Assembly (NCBI GenBank): GCA_965112155.1
Contig: OZ218114.1
DNA: 64,000 bases
Reading direction: 5' to 3' (one strand)
Source of the DNA: Podarcis liolepis
Taxonomy: Eukaryota
This document shows, one piece after another, positions 28,166 to 53,531 of the stretch. A program made the translations under genes and the position numbers. Every line of letters starts with the position of its first letter. Position 1 is the stretch's first letter. The notes beneath the pieces were generated by a model. The model saw nothing but the letters and a program-made list of their open reading frames with translations. It made no database searches and was not told where the DNA came from.

Positions 28166-28523
28166 CAGTGGTGCCTCGCAAGACGAAAATAATCCGTTCC
28201 GCGAGTCTCTTCGTCTAGCGGTTTTTTCGTCTTGCGAAGCAACCCTATTAGCGTCTTAGCGGATTAGCGCTATTAGCGGTTTAGCGGCTATTAAAGGCTT
28301 AGCGGCTATTAAAGGCTTAGCGGATTAGCGGCTAAAAGGCTATTAGCGGCTTAGCGGCTTAGAAAAAGGGGGGGAAGCGGGGGAAAATCGGAACACTCCC
28401 AAGACGTTTTTGTCTTGCGAAGCAAGCCCATAGGGAAAATCGTCTTGCGAAGCAGCTCAAAAACGGAAAACCCTTTAGCGGGTTTTCCGTCTTGCGAGGC
28501 ATTCGTCTTGCAGGGCACCACTG
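28166..28523. mobile_element. Tc1/mariner (Tigger-like) MITE with internal TTAGCGG tandem repeats
   Basis: TIR CAGTGGTGCC...GGCACCACTG with TA TSD; reverse-oriented copy at 44646-45000. Confidence 0.88.
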
Positions 28524-30489
28524 TACTAGACTAGACCAAAACAAAACATTGAAAGCAACATAAATAAAATTTGTTACATCCCCAGAGTTAAAACACAGGT
28601 TTTCAAAATGGAGCAGTTATCTAAAGCGCCTGTGTTTAGACCCCTCACAAATTCACTCCATAAGTGGTAACCTTGGATTGCTGTGCTGAGCTTCTCACCA
28701 CAAAATTTAGGTATCCCCTAGCCTGCTCCAGTAACCCCTAGGTGCTACTGCCCAAACATACCATCTCCTAGGACCGGGAGCCCTTCTTTCCCTCATCTAG
28801 CCTCCATGTTGCCCAACAACCCCTCGGTTGGGGGATGGGGGAAACACAGCGTACATTATAAGTTCCTTTCTAGGACCTCTTCTGACTTGATAAAAGGCAG
28901 CTATAGATGTTCATTCACACACATCATATTGGATGAGCCCAATGCCCATTGGTAGAGCAGGGTGGAAGAGTGCAGAAATCTAAGTTTAGAGTGATGTGTA
29001 CAGATTCCCCTACAGTCTATTCCTCAGGAAATCTGATAATTTGCTGCTGAACTTTGAAAAATAAAAAGACCTAACTTTTCTAGTGGAGAACAGCAATTTT
29101 CCAATTATGGTTTCAGGGGCTGCACCCCTCAACACAAACAAGTATTTGGCAACGATATTCTCAGAGATATCCAAATCAGTGCACTTTGGAATGGTTCATT
29201 CCACCATCTTGAATCAAAATGCCATCCAAAAGTTTCTAAGCAGAGATGAAAACCAGCTCCTCCATATCAGGAGGTGATGTGCAAGTTGGGCAGTGAAATC
29301 TCAAGAGGCGTCCAAATGCATACAGAACTAGCAGAAAGACAAACAGCTTTCCAAAACAGAGAGCAGAAGAAAAACTATTGTAATCCAATAGTGTACAATA
29401 GTGGGTTAAGCAAGTTCATAGCCCAGCCCATGAAGGGCTTGAGAGGTCACTGACTGCAAGGCACAAACTCTTGAAAAAAACCAGTTTTTTACAATCCACT
29501 CCCAAACCTTTCTTGCATTTCTACCCCTTGCTTTTCACCAACAATATTTGAGCAACAATCACACACACACAAGCAATACATATCCAGCAGCCTAAATCCT
29601 TAGGGACCAATCACATCTACAGGTCCCAGAAGAATTCCTAAAGAGAGTGGTGGCAGCAGTGACTTGGGTGGGGAGAGAGGAAACTCTCCCAGGGAACTGT
29701 CTCTTGCTGAACTCAAGGGCTCAAGGCAGAAACAATAGCCGTATTGTGCCAGAGCCAGGGAGCTCAGGACGTGCCAGGATTTCTGTTCAAGGGAATGTGA
29801 AAAGAGGCTCTCGTTCACTCTTGCTCTTTTGTTTCCACACAATCAAGTACCGCAGATGAATTTTAGCTAACGATTTCAATCAAAGCTCAACCCCAGAACC
29901 TGTTCTAAATGTTGGGGCTCAGTCCCAGAAGAAATTAAGTAGAAAAGCTAATTAAGAAAGCTGTTGCCAAGCTACCCTGCTTCACTGCCACCCTGAGCGT
30001 AGTCCTGTAGCTAATAATAATAATAACAACAACAACAATAATAATAATACTCCATCCAGCTGACTGAGTTGCCCTAGCAATTCCAGGCAGCTTCCAGCAA
30101 ATTATAAAACTTACCGTGGTTTTATTACATTTAAAAAATCACTATACAGGACTGCCTTCAGATGTCTTATAAAAGTCAGATTGTAGTTTATTTCCTTGAC
30201 ATGATGTGAGGGCGCCACTACTGAGAAGGCCCTCTGCCTGGTTCCCTGTAACCTCATTTCTCACAGTGGAACTTAGTAAGCTGCCTGACCAAATCAGGTC
30301 ATTGGATCACAGAGGTCTCCATTATCTCCATCACCAAGGAGAAGCCGCAGCCCTCCAGAGAGAACGAAAGCACCTTCCTGAAGGGTGGTCAAGACTCAAA
30401 GGTCCTTTGTGGGGAAATCGCAGGCCCCTGAGCTGAATGTGTCTGGACAGGGTGATGGACTAGCTGGAACTTTGAATCCAATTTACGAT

Positions 30490-43715: not shown

Positions 43716-44645
43716 TATTTGAGTACAAGGACTGCTTCTACCCATATATTGAGCACCATTGTCCAGTTCTTCTGCCACCACACCCCATGCATGTCAGAAT
43801 CATAAAATTGTAAAGTTGTCCAACCCCCCTGCAATGTAGGAACATATGCAGATCAAACCTGCAACCTTGGTATAAGCAGCACCATGCTCTAACCAACTGA
43901 ACTATCCAGGCTGATATATGTAAGTGAGCTCTAGTTCATGAAAGCTTATACCATAATAAAAGTTTGTCAGACATTAAGGTACTACAGATCTATTTTGTGT
44001 AACAGGCTAGCATAGTTACTGGTACTTCTCTGGAAAATGAAATTACGAGTTTTTCCACAGCTATGATATACCAGTATAAACTGGAAGTAAAAGTAATCTC
44101 AAAAGCTTCATTTTAATTAAGTCTGGGGCAGAAACCAGAGAGCAGCAACAGCTGTTGTTCAGGAGTTTTTGCTTGTCTACTGATTTACTGGGGAGAGGAG
44201 GATTAGTTAAAGCTTTCAAGCATGCTTATAATACCCAAATATTTGCAGTAACAAAATTGTACTGTGTGACACAACTGAAAATCAAAGATGAAACTGAAAT
44301 CAAACCCACAAACCTCCAAACTACACTACTTGTTATCTTGAGGAAGACAGTGTATCTAATTTCCCACCATTTGTGTCCTGGAGTGCATGTATCCTTATCT
44401 TCTATGAAAGTCAGGGAGGATTATGTGATGGTTACAGAGTTTGCTGAAAGTAAAAGTGTTAAGCAAAACCACATCCTTATTCACACACTAGCAGAACTCT
44501 TCCCAAGGGATGGGAAAATCCTAGGCAACTGAAAAAGTTGATTTTGGAGAATAATTGATTTTTCAACCCTAAACAACATTTGCTTCTAGAAACCTAAAGC
44601 ATTTTTCAATTTAGTTTAGTTTGCTGTCTTGACCATGTCATGATA

Positions 44646-45000
44646 CAGTGGTGCCCCGCAAGACGAATGCCTCGCAAGACGGAAAACCCGCTAGACGAAA
44701 GGGTTTTCCGTTTTTGAGCTGCTTCGCAAGACAATTTTCCCTATGGGCTTGCTTTGCAAGACGAAAACGTCTTGTGAGTGTTCCGATTTTTTTTCGCTCC
44801 CCCCCCTTTTTTCTAAGCCGCTAATCCGCTAATAGCCTTTTAGCCGCTAATCCGCTAAGCCTTTAATAGCCGCTAAGCCTTTAATAGCCGCTAAACCGCT
44901 AATAGGGCTAAGCCGCTAATAGGGTTGCTTCGCAAGACAAAAAACCGCTAGACGAAGAGACTCACGGAACGGATTAATTTTGTCTTGCGAGGCACCACTG
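44646..45000. mobile_element. Tigger-like MITE with CCGCTAA repeats
   Basis: TIR CAGTGGTGCC with TA TSD; reverse complement of 28166-28523. Confidence 0.88.
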
Positions 45001-46237
45001 TATAGCTTTACAGATCAGTTGAAACAGCAACAAAATCGGTAAGCAATCATTATAACAATTTACCACATGAGTATTTAAATCTATCTGACTCAATTGCAAG
45101 AACTCATGAAGTGGCAGATATCTCTCCACCTCCAATTAAAAACTATTTCTTTTGAATTAAGATAGGAAGGCAGCTGACACAGGAATATACAGTTCTTCCC
45201 TCCTGATAAATGGGACACTAGAATAAACAGCAGGGATCATTATCAGCACAATTATTTATTTAATAACATTTCTATATATACAACTTGACTGTTAAAAATA
45301 ACAACAACCTCAACATGGTTTACAAACATAGGGAATGTTCCTGTTAACATTTATCCAGAACACAGAAGGCATTTTCTAGAATCTTTAATTGCATTTGTTT
45401 ATTTTATCTATTATAGTGATTTTTACCACCACCCCTTGAAGCAAGTTCCCAGGCCACATAAGTAAATTTGGTTGGGGTCCTTAAAAAAATTTAAGAATCA
45501 ATCCATTCATATCTCACCCTTCCTCCTGAAAGAACCCAGGGTGGCTCATTATCATTATTATTTAGGACCCAAAGGAATTTCAATTGGCATTATTTCAGTC
45601 CCAAAAATAACTTCTTAAGACTAATAACCAACAATAACAATATATTTAGTCTCCAGGCAAAAACATTATTTTCTCATCAAACCTTTGGCTTTTAATTAAT
45701 TACCTGAGGCCTTTTTGCATGGGATGTTTTAATCCATTTAAAAAAAACAGAATTGTCTTTATTTTTATTTCCCCCCATATGCTTAAAATATTACAAGTCC
45801 GTTTGTGCTGCCATGGCAAAAAAGCAGCTAATAAATTTAATAAATAACAACGATCATACAAGATGGCTTACAACAACAGTAATAATACAATGTGATAAAT
45901 GAAAAGGGGTGGGGGGGTTGTCCATCTCCCATAATTTAGATGGGAGTGTGTAGAGGATTAGCCAAGAGATTAATGGGGTGACCCCCTACAATGGGGTGGG
46001 GACAAGGGATAATAATAGGTGGGGGCTCCGAGGTAGAACACTTTTACACCGTAAAAGATGTGGAGGCGAAATATCCATGAGGCGACCTCCAATGGCTGGG
46101 GGGCTTCTGCGTGAGGCGGGCTGAGCCAATGTACACACGCCCTCCTGTATAGAGATGGAGGGTGTGTGTACGTGTATATATATATATATATATTTTGGTG
46201 TCTTCGGGTGTCTTCCCGTGTAAGAGTTGGGGTGTCT

Positions 46238-46280
46238 AGGCGACGTTTCGACGAGGTCTCACTCGTCATCTTCAGGCTGG
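46238..46280 (-). ncRNA. Minimal type I hammerhead ribozyme motif (PLE left arm, sense to NIPSNAP2)
   Basis: CTGAAGA-T-GACGAG-tgagac-CTCGTC-GAAAC-GTC on the minus strand. Confidence 0.8.
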
Positions 46281-46512
46281 TGCTTTCGGCTTCTTGTTAC
46301 TGGAACAGAGCAGGATCTCAGTGTTTGAGTTCCTATAAATACTGTTGAGGGGGTGTGGTGTATAGCCTCCAACGTTCTGGGCAGAGGGGAAGTTCCCAGG
46401 TTAGTTTGCCTATTCTTCTTTTGTTCCTTAATTACTTGAGGGATATCTTGAGTGATTTCTTGAGTGATATTCTGAGTACCACTTAGGTGGGTCATTAAGT
46501 GTGGATTAGTTG

Positions 46513-47316
46513 CTAAAGCTTTCGTGTCTTGACCTCTTGAGCTTGTGAAGAGTTTTTCTGAGAAGATGGCTGTACTGCACTTAGTTGTGCTCTGGCTTGG
46601 CTTCGTGTATAGGGGCGAGCTGTGGTTTTGTGCCCTGTGCCAGCCAGATCTGTGTAGGGATTGCAGGGGGGTGCAGCATCCGGAGGTGCCACTATGGTTT
46701 GGCTACTGGATGGTGTCTGTAATTTATCTGTGGAGAGGGTCTGGGTTTGGGTCTGGTGTGGTTGATTGGTGATGGCGTTCTGTGTGCCTCTGGTTCTGGT
46801 GTCGGTTTTTGTGGGGAGGGCTAATTTCCAGATGTCTGGCAGGCGGGACGTGTCGTCACGCTTGTTCATGTTGTGAGGGTGTTTCTCTATCTCGATGGCT
46901 TCCATGATTATTCTCTTGTGGTGATGTTCCATGTTAAAGAGCAATTTGGAATCTGCAAAATTAATTTCGTGTCCTGTTTCTTTCATGTGTTGGAAAAGAG
47001 AGGAAGTTTTTTCTTCTTTTTTGACGGCATTCTTGTGTTCTGCGATACGTGCATTTATTCGTCTGTTTGTTTGTCCAATGTACGTGGCTGGGCAGACTTT
47101 GCAGGGTATTTCATAGACCCCTTGGTTTTCCAACTGGATTTTATCTTTGGGGTTTCTGAGGATATTGGCTATTTTTTGGTTGGTGCAAAAGGCTGTTTTG
47201 ATATTGTGTTTATGGAGGATTTTGCTAATTTTATCTGTAGTGCCCTTGATATAAGGAAGGAGGGCCATGCCATTGTTTTCTTCTGTGTCTTGGTTTTTGG
47301 GGGGTGGCAATGGCAT
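46513..47316 (-). CDS. PLE GIY-YIG endonuclease ORF, left arm (267 aa; expression unproven)
   Basis: Uninterrupted ORF with RT-thumb/linker remnant (LPYIKG) and a GIY-YIG domain with CxxC. Confidence 0.5.
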   Translation of the reverse strand: MPLPPPKNQDTEENNGMALLPYIKGTTDKISKILHKHNIKTAFCTNQKIANILRNPKDKIQLENQGVYEIPCKVCPATYIGQTNRRINARIAEHKNAVKKEEKTSSLFQHMKETGHEINFADSKLLFNMEHHHKRIIMEAIEIEKHPHNMNKRDDTSRLPDIWKLALPTKTDTRTRGTQNAITNQPHQTQTQTLSTDKLQTPSSSQTIVAPPDAAPPCNPYTDLAGTGHKTTARPYTRSQARAQLSAVQPSSQKNSSQAQEVKTRKL

Positions 47317-47999
47317 GGCCCTTTTGCACCAACCAAAAAATAGCCAATATCCTCAGAAACCCCAAAGATAAAATCCAGTTGGAAAACCAAGGGGTCTATG
47401 AAATACCCTGCAAAGTCTGCCCAGCCACGTACATTGGACAAACAAACAGACGAATAAATGCACGTATCGCAGAACACAAGAATGCCGTCAAAAAAGAAGA
47501 AAAAACTTCCTCTCTTTTCCAACACATGAAAGAAACAGGACACGAAATTAATTTTGCAGATTCCAAATTGCTCTTTAACATGGAACATCACCACAAGAGA
47601 ATAATCATGGAAGCCATCGAGATAGAGAAACACCCTCACAACATGAACAAGCGTGACGACACGTGCCGCCTGCCAGACATCTGGAAATTAGCCCTCCCCA
47701 CAAAAACCGACACCAGAACCAGAGGCACACAGAACGCCATCACCAATCAACCACACCAGACCCAAACCCAGACCCTCTCCACAGATAAATTACAGACACC
47801 ATCCAGTAGCCAAACCATAGTGGCACCTCCGGATGCTGCACCCCCCTGCAATCCCTACACAGATCTGGCTGGCACAGGGCACAAAACCACAGCTCGCCCC
47901 TATACACGAAGCCAAGCCAGAGCACAACTAAGTGCAGTACAGCCATCTTCTCAGAAAAACTCTTCACAAGCTCAAGAGGTCAAGACACGAAAGCTTTAG
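47310..47999 (+). CDS. PLE GIY-YIG endonuclease ORF, right arm (229 aa from ATG 47310; expression unproven)
   Basis: Same domain as the left arm with one visible aa change (DDTSRL vs DDTCRL). Confidence 0.5.
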   Translation: MAWPFCTNQKIANILRNPKDKIQLENQGVYEIPCKVCPATYIGQTNRRINARIAEHKNAVKKEEKTSSLFQHMKETGHEINFADSKLLFNMEHHHKRIIMEAIEIEKHPHNMNKRDDTCRLPDIWKLALPTKTDTRTRGTQNAITNQPHQTQTQTLSTDKLQTPSSSQTIVAPPDAAPPCNPYTDLAGTGHKTTARPYTRSQARAQLSAVQPSSQKNSSQAQEVKTRKL

Positions 48000-48231
48000 C
48001 AACTAATCCACACTTAATGACCCACCTAAGTGGTACTCAGAATATCACTCAAGAAATCACTCAAGATATCCCTCAAGTAATTAAGGAACAAAAGAAGAAT
48101 AGGCAAACTAACCTGGGAACTTCCCCTCTGCCCAGAACGTTGGAGGCTATACACCACACCCCCTCAACAGTATTTATAGGAAATCAAACACTGAGATCCT
48201 GCTCTGTTCCAGTAACAAGAAGCCGAAAGCA

Positions 48232-48274
48232 CCAGCCTGAAGATGACGAGTGAGACCTCGTCGAAACGTCGCCT
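48232..48274 (+). ncRNA. Minimal type I hammerhead ribozyme motif (PLE right arm)
   Basis: CTGAAGA 48237-48243; stem II GACGAG/CTCGTC; GAAAC 48263-48267; GTC cleavage triplet 48268-48270. Confidence 0.8.
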
Positions 48275-48675
48275 AGACACCCCAACTCTTACACGGGAAG
48301 ACACCCGAAGACACCAAAACCTACATTCCTGTACCCGTGAAAATCTACGAAAGCAAATATATATATGTGTGTGTGTGTGTGTGTGTATATACACACAGTA
48401 TATATGTGTGTGTGTCAAAGACGCTATTTATTGAATAATATGAGCGGGGAAGAGAAGAGACGATGAGACCCCCCCCCCATTCCCACAATTTATTAACTCT
48501 GAAGTGCTGTTGGGGGAGGAAGCAAGAAACCACCTGACCAGCCCATGACCTTGAGCGAGGGGGGGGGAGGAAAGAGCGCGCGCCAGAAAGAAACGGCTCT
48601 CCTCTCCCCCCCCCCCCCGTCGCTCGACCTTCCCGCCACTTTCCACCCCTCCCTCCCCGGCAGCTTCCCCCTCAC

Positions 48676-48779
48676 CTGAGGAAAAAAAGGCGGGAACGGC
48701 CCCCTTGGGCTGGGAAGGCGCTGAGGCGGAGGCGGCCGCCGCTCCCCCGCCGCAGCAGCAGTAGCGCCCCGGCCGCCAT
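48676..48779 (-). CDS. NIPSNAP2: NIPSNAP2 (GBAS) exon 1, mitochondrial presequence-like
   Basis: MAAGALLLLRRGSGGRLRLSAFPAQGGRSRLFFLR (Arg-rich, no acidic residues); Kozak AAGATGG; donor AG|GTGAG; phase fits exon 2. Confidence 0.9.
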
Positions 48780-49000
48780 CTTGACCACCTCAACCTGAGG
48801 GGACGGCGCGGGGGAAAAGGAAGGGGAAATGGGGGCGCAGTGCCCCCCAGTAGCCACTAGAGGGAGCCTTTTCCCCCACCGGGAGGGACGGAGTTGAGGA
48901 GGGGGACACGGAAAGCTTTCTCTCTCCCCCCCCCCCAACGCCGCACATTTCTCCGACGAAGGTCTCAAAGGCGCAGCGCCATTAAGCTGAGGCGACTCTG
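48780..49000 (-). promoter_or_regulatory. NIPSNAP2 CpG-island promoter and 5' UTR
   Basis: GC/CpG-rich; YY1-type AAGATGGCGG overlapping the start codon. Confidence 0.65.
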
Positions 49001-50646
49001 GCCAAGGTGCAACCCCAGAACCTTGTTGGGGGGTTGAACAGTGTGACGGATTGAAAAATAAACGGTTTAGTTCCCCTCGAGGGGGGCTGCCCTACGTGGA
49101 TCCTAAAGTGCCATCTTGCTCCTCTTAGAACAATTTAAATGAATAGGCTCTAATAGACCTGAGGAAAAGCCCCTTCTGAACATGGGCAGAGTGCATTTTT
49201 TGTTCACAAAGGGCACCACAGACTAGGCCTACAGAGGGCTCCTGTGGTTGTGTAGAGTGCGCTCACCCCCACCAAAAGAAAGCATTTTTAAATGTAATTA
49301 TTTTTCAAATCCAATGCAAAACATGTAAACCAAGGAAGTGGCACTTGTATACCATTTGCACAAAAACCTCAGCCTGAGGAAAGGCTAAAGAAGACATTCT
49401 GGTCCAGAACAAAAGTTTGCATAATTCATAAATTTGGAAAGACATTGGATACCCTTCTGATGTCATATTTGTTTGTAGATGTAATAATAGATGCCCAGCC
49501 AGCTGTAAATGCATGTTTTGTGTTTTTCTCCAGCCATGCACAATGTTTGCATACTTTTTTTCAATTAAGGCAATTATCATACTGATGCCAAACTTCGTGT
49601 GGACCCCTGATCAGCATAGCCACAGCAGTCCACACTATTAAACTAGTACAGTAAGTCAAAATGTCCCCTATTTGGCCCTTCCAAAATTTGCAGGTAGCTG
49701 CTGCAACAAAGAAGTATCATATTAAAGTCTTGCTTTGTAAATCTGTACTCTCCACTGTAATAAATTTAGTAAAAAGTATTTTTAAAACATCTAATTTTTG
49801 ATAGATTTCCTCCCCACCTCCCAGAAGAACCCATTTGTTTATTAATACATGGAACAGGAAAAAAACAATGAACGTTTCCCCACCGGCTTTGCATCCAAGT
49901 TGTTAATGAAACTCTGGCCAGAAAAATTATAGCCAGCTGGCAACTAATTCTGAAATTGGGACAATATTGGTTTGGGAAATCAAGTTTTCTTTTTGGGTGA
50001 CTCCCTGATAATCCACATTTCTAAAAAATAAAAAAACAACCAGTAAAAGCAATATTACTCCCATGAAATTAATTTTATTAGGAGAATATTGTATTATATT
50101 CAACAGGCTTACTTAGATGTAAATTCCACAGAGATCAATAGAATTGCCTGTCTTTACCAGGGAGCGAATTCCATTGAGCTCAGTAATACATTAAAGTAAG
50201 CATGTTTAGGATCAGGTAGTTGTTTTTGTAATACTTTCAGCCCAAGTGCTGTATAATTATAGTATAATTATTAGGATTATCCTATATAGTTTTATGATTA
50301 TGTAGTGTGCTGGGTTGGGAACATTTAATAAAAGAGCAGAGCATAATATATCATTTTTACCAGCAGAAAGTGCCCAACGTTGCTTGGGAATTATAAGAAA
50401 CCAAAAATATCAGTACAGTTTTGAAACCAGTACATAAGAAATAGCCTGCTGAATGAGGCCCTTGGCACATTTAGTCCAGCATTCTGTTATCACAGTGGCC
50501 GAGATGCCTATGGGAAACAAGCAAGCAGAACATGAGCACGAGAGCCCTCTCCCTCCCTTGAAGGGGCAAAGTCCTCTGGGATGTTTGCCTGTACAAGCAC
50601 CACTAACAGGAACCTGAGCTGTGCAAGAACATGGAAGAGTGTTTGC

Positions 50647-50769
50647 TAAGGTTACCAGATTTTTTTCAATGAATCCAGGGATACTTTTCAACTTCAATGG
50701 ATTTTGTATGGGGACTGATTTGTAAATCTGGGGACTGTCACTGGGAAACGGGGACGTTTGGTAATCTTA
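50647..50769. mobile_element. hAT MITE
   Basis: TIR TAAGGTTACCA / TGGTAATCTTA; TSD GTGTTTGC. Confidence 0.8.
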
Positions 50770-51318
50770 GTGTTTGCACCATTTCCATTCTTGCGCATAT
50801 CCCAGGGGACAATTCCCATGGATCAGATCAGTCTTCCACTGTTTTTAATGGTGCCCAGAAACTTACACCCAGAGGCAATTCTCACAGTAGTGCCTGATCC
50901 TAAACGTTGTCTTATACCAGCTGAAGTGTTTGAAAAGGTGGTGGGCTCCATCTACCCTGTGCCATAGGAGCCAACTCCTAGGGGTCAAGGTCCCTTTGCC
51001 CCCCATAAAATATTTGAGGGGGCTGGAGCCCCCAAAGTTAATGGGCATTGCCATTCAAATGGTGTGTGTGTGTGTGTGTGTGTGTGTCACATCTTGTGAT
51101 CAATGATGTGGGGTGGGGCTTACCTGTCCGTCCGTCCCCCAATATTGGATTTCACTGCTTTGCTGCACTGTGAAGTATTAAACATTGTGTATTGTTTTTG
51201 GATACCATCAAGCAGAGAGGCCACTTATAAATATTGTAGCAGACCAACTTACATTCACTTGAAAGATTTTAAAAGTAAACTGAATGTTTCTGTTGTCCTG
51301 TGAGCAGGTTAATTCAAG

Positions 51319-51437: not shown

Positions 51438-51728
51438 TCATTTATCTGAAGAAGAAACAGTTAATTCTTGGAGCTTTTCACTAAGGTAACTGGTATCTCT
51501 ATCGGTCAGGTTTTCTGAGTCCGTTACACTTTCCAGTAGCCTACTGCCTGCACAAGGCTTCCCCGTCACTGGATCAATGATTTTCCCAACCTTGTACACA
51601 ATCTCAGCCAGTTCGTGTTTCACGTGCTTGCTCCTCCGTTCGGGCAAAGCTTTTAAGAGAACGATGTCTCCCTCAATGCACTGCTGCTGGGGGTCATGAG
51701 CAAAGTATGTTTTCCGCTTGTTATAGAA
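51438..51728 (-). CDS. MRPS17: 28S ribosomal protein S17, mitochondrial, last coding exon
   Basis: [61 protein letters not shown]...; CAG acceptor. Confidence 0.95.
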
Positions 51729-51892
51729 CTGTGGGAGAAGAGAGGAAAGAGCACATGGATTATTCAGTGGTAGGCAAATGATTCAGAGAAACCTGAGTGC
51801 CAGCAAGACTGAACCGGGATAGCTGCTCAGCCCTGACATTGACTGAAGTTCTCCATCATACTGGTGGAACTCAACCCCAAAGGAAAGTTTAC

Positions 51893-52015
51893 CTTTAGCA
51901 AGTAAGGATCCAGCACCAGCCGCGTCACTCTCACTTTCGCTGTTTTACGCATCTTGGTCCCAATGACTTTCCCTATGATCCATTTTGCGTGGACAGCACC
52001 ACGCAATGCAGACAT
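51893..52015 (-). CDS. MRPS17: MRPS17 first coding exon
   Basis: [41 protein letters not shown]; the exon begins at acceptor 52033; 123 coding nt. Confidence 0.96.
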
Positions 52016-53531
52016 GGCTCAGTTACGAACACCCTGAGAAGCAAGAACAAGGTATCATTTTAACAGCCAGTGGCAAAGTACAGCCAAGCCAACACACCTA
52101 TTATTATTTATAATAACAAGCCTACCTAGATATTTAGAATGCTGATGTGTTTTTAGTTTATTACTGGTTTTAATTTTCTGAATGTTTTAATTGTTTTTAG
52201 TAATAATTTTGTTGTTTTATTCTTTTTATAAACCTATCTGTTGGGGTTTTTTAAACAATCAAACAGTAAATAAATTTCATGAAATAAACAAATGAAACAA
52301 ATAATAAATGTATCTGTTTGGCTTATTTCCTACCCTTCACCACCAAGTCCCAGGGCAGATCACAGCAATTTAAAAAATATAATATTAAAAACACTTTAAA
52401 TCTAAACAAAGAAACAGCATTTCTCCTTACATTCTAGCCGTAAGAAAGGCAGAGGAACACCCCAGGTTTGCTAGTCTTGAAAACCCAGGCTCCCCTAAGT
52501 ATTAATGCTAGATGCTAGTAAAAATGCTTCAAGCCCAGTGCACATCAACACCACACACTAACTTAGAAAGCAGGACAAAATTATTGCTGTGGAAAAGCTG
52601 GTACTGCCAGTGTGTGATGCCTAGATCTTAATCATGAGAAAGGTGTGTTGCAGTACTTTAACTTGATGGCTGTGCTCCACTTCCACGGTCAGAGGCAGTG
52701 ATGCTTCTGAATACCAGTTGCTGGAAACCACAAGAGGGGAGAGTGCTCTTATACTTAAATCCCGCTTGTGCGTTTCCCATAGCCACTGTAAGAACAGGAT
52801 GCTGGACTAGATCCCACCCACCCACCCCCCCGGTCTGATCCAGCAGGTTCTTTTATGTTGTTAACAGATTTATTGTGGTGTAAGATGGCTTGACAACCAT
52901 ATGTCAGGAGTGCTCTGATGGTGTTTCCTGCTTGGCAGGGGGTTGGACTCGATGGCCCTTGTGGTCTCTTCCAACTCTATGATTCTATGATTCTAAGATT
53001 TCAGACCTGGAGGGCCATGAACTTCCCGGCCTTTGATAAAGTATCTCACAAGCAGGGATGAGAAAATCCTTGTATGTCTGAGATCCTGGAAAACTGCTGG
53101 AGAATAGGTAATGCCACAAAATGATGAACAAACTGACACTACATCCACTGTTTTGTCTTTTAAAAATTATTGCAGCTGACAGTTTAGGGCTGCTTCATTG
53201 GCACACAGCTGTCTGTCAAATATATCCCCATTAAGTGACCTTGCTCCTGAAAACTTGGGGTGAAGTTACGCTTCCACCATAGGATGAAAAAAAAGGTGAG
53301 AGGAAATTAGGGGGGTTGCAAGAGGACTGGATGAAGGAGCCCTCCTGCCTCCCAGAATTATAGGGGAGTTTAGAGGAGCAGAGGCGGCCTTCCCCCTCCA
53401 CAGCCCTACGTGAATCTCCATTATATCGTCCACCTCTGCCTTTGTACCCCAACCAGGTCTCTGCCCCGCAGAGACAGTAAGGCTCCCCACTCCCGCGCCC
53501 TCCGCCCTATAAATCCGTTGGAAACTCTTAC

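Follow-up and report, generated by a model that had tools for sequence, protein, structure and literature searches.

The window, a 64-kb stretch of Podarcis liolepis contig OZ218114.1, carries the minus-strand gene NIPSNAP2. Its first coding exon (48779–48676) matched a lacertid NipSnap homolog 2 protein at 34 of 34 residues, and its second exon (from 42919) was identical to the lacertid homolog; a Pfam NIPSNAP match was also obtained for the gene. A mirror-image insertion of approximately 2.2 kb is located in intron 1, at 315 nt from the exon 1 donor; it spans 46193–48360, so that the bounds given in a preliminary description of this DNA, 46238–48274, were too tight. Upstream of NIPSNAP2, at 51441–52018 on the minus strand, two exons were assigned to an MRPS17-type Ribosomal_S17 gene. 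Intron 1 also contains a second small element (44643–45003), with 25-nt terminal inverted repeats and internal repeats of 8–18 nt, and a similar sequence is found near 28200–28600. The features of the locus are as follows.

46172–46192, unstranded: (AT)n microsatellite at the left junction, with a counterpart 3' of 48360
46193–47306, minus strand: left arm, a 5'-truncated Penelope/Poseidon-type copy with the remnant of a C-terminal GIY-YIG ORF, the pLTR and the first 77 nt of the next ORF
46242–46275, minus strand: minimal hammerhead core, sense in the NIPSNAP2 pre-mRNA; predicted cut 46242/46241; ORF AUG at 46269–46267
46311–46341, minus strand: mirror TATA-like box and putative start at 46311, proposed from mirror symmetry
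47307–47319, unstranded: 13-nt junction patch which, as read from the sequence, is the reverse complement of a stretch of the element located some 35 nt into the left arm
47320–48360, plus strand: right arm, a 5'-truncated copy with its outer end at +118 and a 34-nt tail (48327–48360)
48171–48201, plus strand: TATA-like box (48171–48178) and candidate start at −42 (48201), where 5' ends pile up; putative promoter
48237–48270, plus strand: minimal hammerhead core, antisense in the NIPSNAP2 pre-mRNA; predicted cut 48270/48271; ORF AUG at 48243–48245
48676–48779, minus strand: NIPSNAP2 coding exon 1, with donor GT at 48675; intron 1 extends to 42920

The arms form an inverted repeat (46193–47192 and 47320–48319) with 2 differences per 1,000 bases. 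Both differences are private to the right arm, and two variants are common to both arms of the window and absent from every other sampled arm. At its outer end the left arm stops at +77, which is 7 nt before the +84 position typical of the family. The junction patch overlaps the right arm by 2 nt and, judged by its sequence, is likely a templated end-joining scar. A target-site duplication is unreadable at this insertion within the (AT)n tract, which is present on both flanks. No empty site was recovered from four runs, whose contigs ended before the junction.

Each arm corresponds to the 3' part of a Penelope-like element (PLE), including the GIY-YIG remnant, the pLTR and the beginning of the following ORF. 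The window itself carries the endonuclease part of the ORF only as a remnant, and the reverse transcriptase (RT) was described from sister copies. An intact ORF of 906 aa, with RT and GIY-YIG, was present in two of the 20 loci fetched (L031 and L042); RVT_1 was recognized with E = 1.8e-14 and GIY-YIG with E = 0.0011, the score of the latter being under the Pfam cut-off (19.6–21.4 versus 22.6 bits). A linker Zn-finger was not found in this ORF, whose sole CxxC (residue 711) falls within the GIY-YIG domain. These sequence characteristics fit an EN+ PLE of the Penelope/Poseidon clade, as that clade is defined in the accessible text of PMC8557442. Sister copies show a tandem unit of 2,963 bp, and inverted pairs with the 34-nt one-sided tail are likewise present among them. 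The nearest named protein, from a lacertid lizard, was 98% identical, followed by a viper protein (82%), unnamed proteins (46–61%) and the best Anolis match (45%); invertebrate proteins are also among the homologues. The patchy identities (viper 82% versus Anolis 45%) could reflect horizontal transfer.

The exact 34-nt core was found in 5,785 copies in the genome and in none in the reversed control. Among the matches listed, the first 100 of 5,785, there were 44 clusters, 33 of them with a head-to-head −/+ pair, and these held 88 of the 100 motifs. The insertion is a young, ordinary member of a known and very abundant element class. Tail-to-tail neighbours were 194–226 bp apart in nine of 11 cases on chromosome C1, among the matches listed; these are separate insertions stacked in one AT tract, which results in multi-inverted clusters.

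To describe the family, the first 40 of the 44 clusters and the window were analysed, comprising 106 arms; these clusters are from one chromosome end and were chosen by the exact core. The outer ends (n = 104) were located, relative to the AUG, at +84 (49 arms) and +118 (51 arms), and once each at +77, +79, +83 and +114; AT repeats (ATAT/TATA) adjoined 102 of them. Head-to-head pairs (n = 46) were long/short in 44 cases, a +118-class end being combined with a +84-class end, and short/short in two (p = 3e-11). The median divergence between arms was 0.07% within a locus versus 2.07% between loci (26 pairs in which 150 or more bases could be compared), and pairs with unpaired centres longer than 1 kb were still nearly identical between arms. 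This difference argues that one donor was primed from both target strands, although such same-donor arms could also arise if one locus supplied two RNAs, or through subsequent gene conversion. Inner junctions overlapped by 1–4 nt in 23 of the 46 pairs, as delimited by BLAST ends.

On this basis, the locus is best explained, with a probability of about 0.85, as a young, 5'-truncated head-to-head insertion of this abundant family, likely made when both cut strands of the target primed reverse transcription on the RNA of one donor, the trapped hammerhead being a by-product. The reading builds on observed characteristics, namely the family, its copy number, the +84/+118 end pairing, the same-donor arms, the AT-repeat target and the intron position. 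The endonuclease would cut both strands of the (AT)n tract, after which the two 3' ends would prime on the element RNA, one of them at +118 and its counterpart at +84. Both cDNAs would traverse the uncut hammerhead and then stop, and their inner ends would be joined via microhomology or a short templated patch, which in the window would be the 13-nt patch.

Two other origins of the paired arms were considered. That two independent insertions entered the same AT repeat and were later homogenised by gene conversion is most improbable. AT tracts do gather several copies, and one exceptional locus (L073), with 84/84 ends, a 405-nt gap and 2.6% divergence, resembles such a case; 18 of its 19 differences are family polymorphisms and it looks like two separate insertions. 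However, 44 long/short end pairs out of 46 are unexplained by this history, and L073 has not been homogenised, yet pairs with unpaired centres of more than 1 kb are nearly identical. It is also very improbable that a single cDNA primed at +118 folds back, copies itself and stops at +84. Self-priming is proposed in the accessible text of PMC3846280 and would explain both the near-identical arms and the correlation of the inner ends (24 of 44 pairs within 70 nt, rho 0.74), and the patch in the window shows that local fold-back copying occurs. Nevertheless, the +118 arm should then always be the one reaching furthest upstream, while this was the case in 14 of 44 pairs; the short arm reached furthest in 26, often by more than 1 kb, and both were equal in four.

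Priming from both target strands was compared with known systems. In LINE-1 twin priming, an inversion results when another cDNA is primed by the second strand of the target, and the two parts derive from different stretches of the RNA. Second-strand priming of a second cDNA and the inversion would be common to both systems, but the arms described here overlap nearly completely, and their starts are fixed sites 34 nt from each other.

The insertion unit of EN+ PLEs, according to the accessible parts of PMC3846280 and PMC8557442, consists of an inverted 5'-truncated copy with a one-sided tail of 30–40 bp. The family agrees with it in the head-to-head inversion, the 34-nt tail on one side only and the microsatellite bias, and differs in the lack of a readable target-site duplication and in the 1-kb arms, which extend into the endonuclease ORF.

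The Poseidon element of Anolis carolinensis, PAc, is described in the accessible text of PMC11167929 as extending both target strands, as a predicted dimer and as inserting equally with a dead ribozyme; its RT starts at two internal sites, one of them at +111–118. The ends of the family copies agree with this internal start region. Further likenesses are the same CUGAnGA-U-G...C-GAAACGUC core, the ORF AUG overlapping A9/U/G10.1, the distance of the cut from the A of the AUG (28 nt in the family versus 29 nt in PAc), the AT-rich targets and the order of RT followed by GIY-YIG. On the other hand, this is a separate family (nearest Anolis protein 45% identical), stem I has 2 bp versus 3 bp in PAc and the sequence of stem II is unlike, and neither strict long/short pairing nor same-donor arms are reported for PAc in the accessible text of that source.

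The intact core that the preliminary description had seen in both arms, CUGAAGA-U-[GACGAG/CUCGUC]-GAAAC-GUC, was recovered at 48237–48270 (plus strand) and 46275–46242 (minus strand), and the position of the predicted cut, 46242/46241, was also in agreement. These are the only two core matches of the CUGAnGA...CGAAA pattern within the window. Both arms keep the conserved C3–A9, G12–A15.1, U16.1–H17 and G10.1–C11.1 as well as an extra base after A9, confirming the proposed condition of a PLE minimal type I hammerhead. Stem III is, as had been described, a loopless palindrome, ACGU (about −3 kcal/mol when paired between two molecules), and stem I is weak (2 bp, pair probability at most 0.014); the pair probabilities of stem II on folding were 0.98–1.0. 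The single insertion between A9 and G10.1 exists, but A9, the inserted U and G10.1 together make up the AUG with which the ORF starts, and this counts against the gene-specific role considered below. The Rfam search that had been suggested gave no hammerhead family at E ≤ 10 over 44000–51000 or 48200–48320, the gathering threshold not being reached; no match is expected because the motif is a loopless minimal variant. When two copies were cofolded, the minimum-energy form was not the active dimer, which is weak evidence, since neither tertiary contacts nor protein enter such a thermodynamic model.

The metazoan PLE hammerheads described in the accessible text of PMC4209133 share the long stem II, the base between positions 9 and 10.1, G10.1–C11.1, the palindromic 15.2/16.2 and the absence of loop 3. 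They differ in that stem I has only 2 bp here, as in D. virilis Penelope, and in that the motif hardly varies among the copies of the family. According to the same text, opposite-strand hammerhead pairs were previously noted in Schistosoma, and minimal hammerheads did not cleave in vitro as monomers and cleaved weakly as dimers. The ribozyme of PAc cuts only with the element protein, as stated in the accessible text of PMC11167929.

Compared by eye with PAc, and thus for two sequences only, three of six stem II pairs and two of two stem I pairs were changed on both sides with the pairing kept. Family polymorphism affected 0 of 38 motif positions versus 38 of 322 nearby positions (p = 0.02), 30 of the 38 motif positions being also coding. 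When other families were searched for variants of stem II, two matches were obtained versus 10 in the control, none of them usable. The ribozyme is likely real, and the hammerhead is probably a protein-assisted ribozyme, of putative activity, in the life cycle of the element itself. At one locus, L110 (G000:C7:64428400-64430900), the same internal deletion removes the whole core and the AUG from both arms of an inverted pair and rejoins at or beside the cut site, as would be expected if insertion did not require the motif in cis.

The 5' ends of the copies pile up at −42 in 11 of the 106 arms, and a count by eye over the first 100 matches, out of 346, placed 32 there. This position is a likely transcription start because it lies 30 nt past the TATA-like box. 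Near the cut site, a by-eye tally of genomic 5' ends in a 13-nt window placed 19 of 99 exactly at +29, 15 at +26 and 14 at +33, and three further matches are internal deletions joining at +29. The excess at +29 gave p = 0.003 under a uniform Poisson null, which is too simple. The total for the cut-site window was not raised (99 versus 93 and 148 in control windows), and a similar peak was present in one control window (21 at −30 among the first 100 of 148 matches), likely from microhomology. A splice junction at −31/−30 was discarded, with no constant upstream sequence in the first 100 of these 148 matches. All 19 candidate +29 loci, plus one deletion locus, were fetched; among the inverted partners of the +29 copies (n = 12), nine also start at or after +29 and three reach upstream.

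The odds are about even for a more specific history, in which the palindromes of the family record a fixed double priming by a dimeric PLE protein, at +118 and +84 on the RNA of the same donor and probably on the same molecule, and the +29 copies are fossils of germ-line hammerhead cleavage. If true, double priming accounts for the inverted-plus-one-sided-tail form of the class. No published model for long/short same-donor arms was found in the open-access literature, and the family represents a clean dataset for the open question of how PLEs make inverted insertions with a one-sided tail. The strict end pairing and the same-donor arms make double priming testable in the existing in vitro system of PAc, and only this end pairing, at the level of the family, merits further work.

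The RNA of the family was studied with reads from four runs of a related species, aligned to the end of one arm; the data are family-wide, without matched DNA and with strandedness assumed. In the two bulk runs, T>C at 48258 was detected in reads with the first mate on the plus strand versus the other class in 14/40 versus 0/64 and in 23/48 versus 0/56 cases, and, among the matches listed, T>C changes within the core were almost exclusive to the former class. A>G at 48299, just downstream of the core, was mostly found in the other class (9/62 versus 2/31 and 9/58 versus 0/60). The two single-cell runs showed almost no such changes. These strand-specific changes, from another species, without matched DNA and with orientation assumed, fit A-to-I editing of family dsRNA. 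Lizard Penelope RNA is massively edited, at more than 40,000 sites, according to the accessible text of PMC5625713; the signal is of the same kind as that of ADAR hyper-edited intronic inverted repeats and lizard Penelope in that source, here at family level only, and the head-to-head arms are likely the structural reason for this heavy editing. No pile of read ends was observed at the hammerhead cut site among the matches listed from the four runs.

As stated in the preliminary description, the antisense copy is transcribed before the sense copy, NIPSNAP2 being on the minus strand with the element in intron 1. On the NIPSNAP2 strand, folding predicts right-arm partners for 994 of the 1,000 bases of the left arm, the whole sense core included, and in the pre-mRNA the arms would zip up during synthesis into an ADAR-type substrate. 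The proposed pre-pairing of the sense copy is thereby supported by prediction; the locus-specific lock and the real folding competition that had been read from it are not supported, since the geometry is generic and the predicted energies over 46 nt are −97 kcal/mol for the duplex and −9 kcal/mol for the monomer, a gap of about 88 kcal/mol.

A functional lock, in which the sense hammerhead would cut the NIPSNAP2 pre-mRNA, the antisense arm shields the gene and the folding competition is real, is very improbable. It has in its favour the geometry and full predicted pairing, the cleavage of the homologous PAc motif with protein (accessible text of PMC11167929) and the edited dsRNA formed by the family in a related species. 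However, the arrangement is generic, shared by thousands of copies, with head-to-head pairs as the norm of the family, and the insertion is very young (2 differences per 1,000 bases). Moreover, stem III is unable to close in the monomer, stem I has 2 bp, and, with only one sense copy present, a partner in cis for a stem III dimer is lacking. Minimal hammerheads without cleavage as monomers (PMC4209133), the protein requirement of the homologous PAc ribozyme (PMC11167929), both as given in the accessible texts, the start-codon U between A9 and G10.1 and the little competition left by the energy gap are in accordance with this. On its own, a hammerhead without a loop is unable to close stem III, so that there is little to lock, the motif at the NIPSNAP2 locus being predicted as inactive with or without the hairpin. 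Any strand crossing a head-to-head pair meets the antisense first, so that the hairpin needs no adaptive explanation, and the hammerhead trapped in a 1-kb hairpin is likely a by-product of the insertion mode and not a gene-specific lock.

The NIPSNAP2 locus itself is minor, one recent intronic insertion among thousands. Likelier effects on it are those of 1 kb of dsRNA close to the donor of exon 1 and of the two putative element promoters, which face outwards. The left-arm promoter, if active, would yield sense-hammerhead RNA without the antisense arm. The putative right-arm promoter (48171–48201, plus strand) faces NIPSNAP2 exon 1 from approximately 470 nt, antisense to the gene, and could give antisense transcription over this exon.
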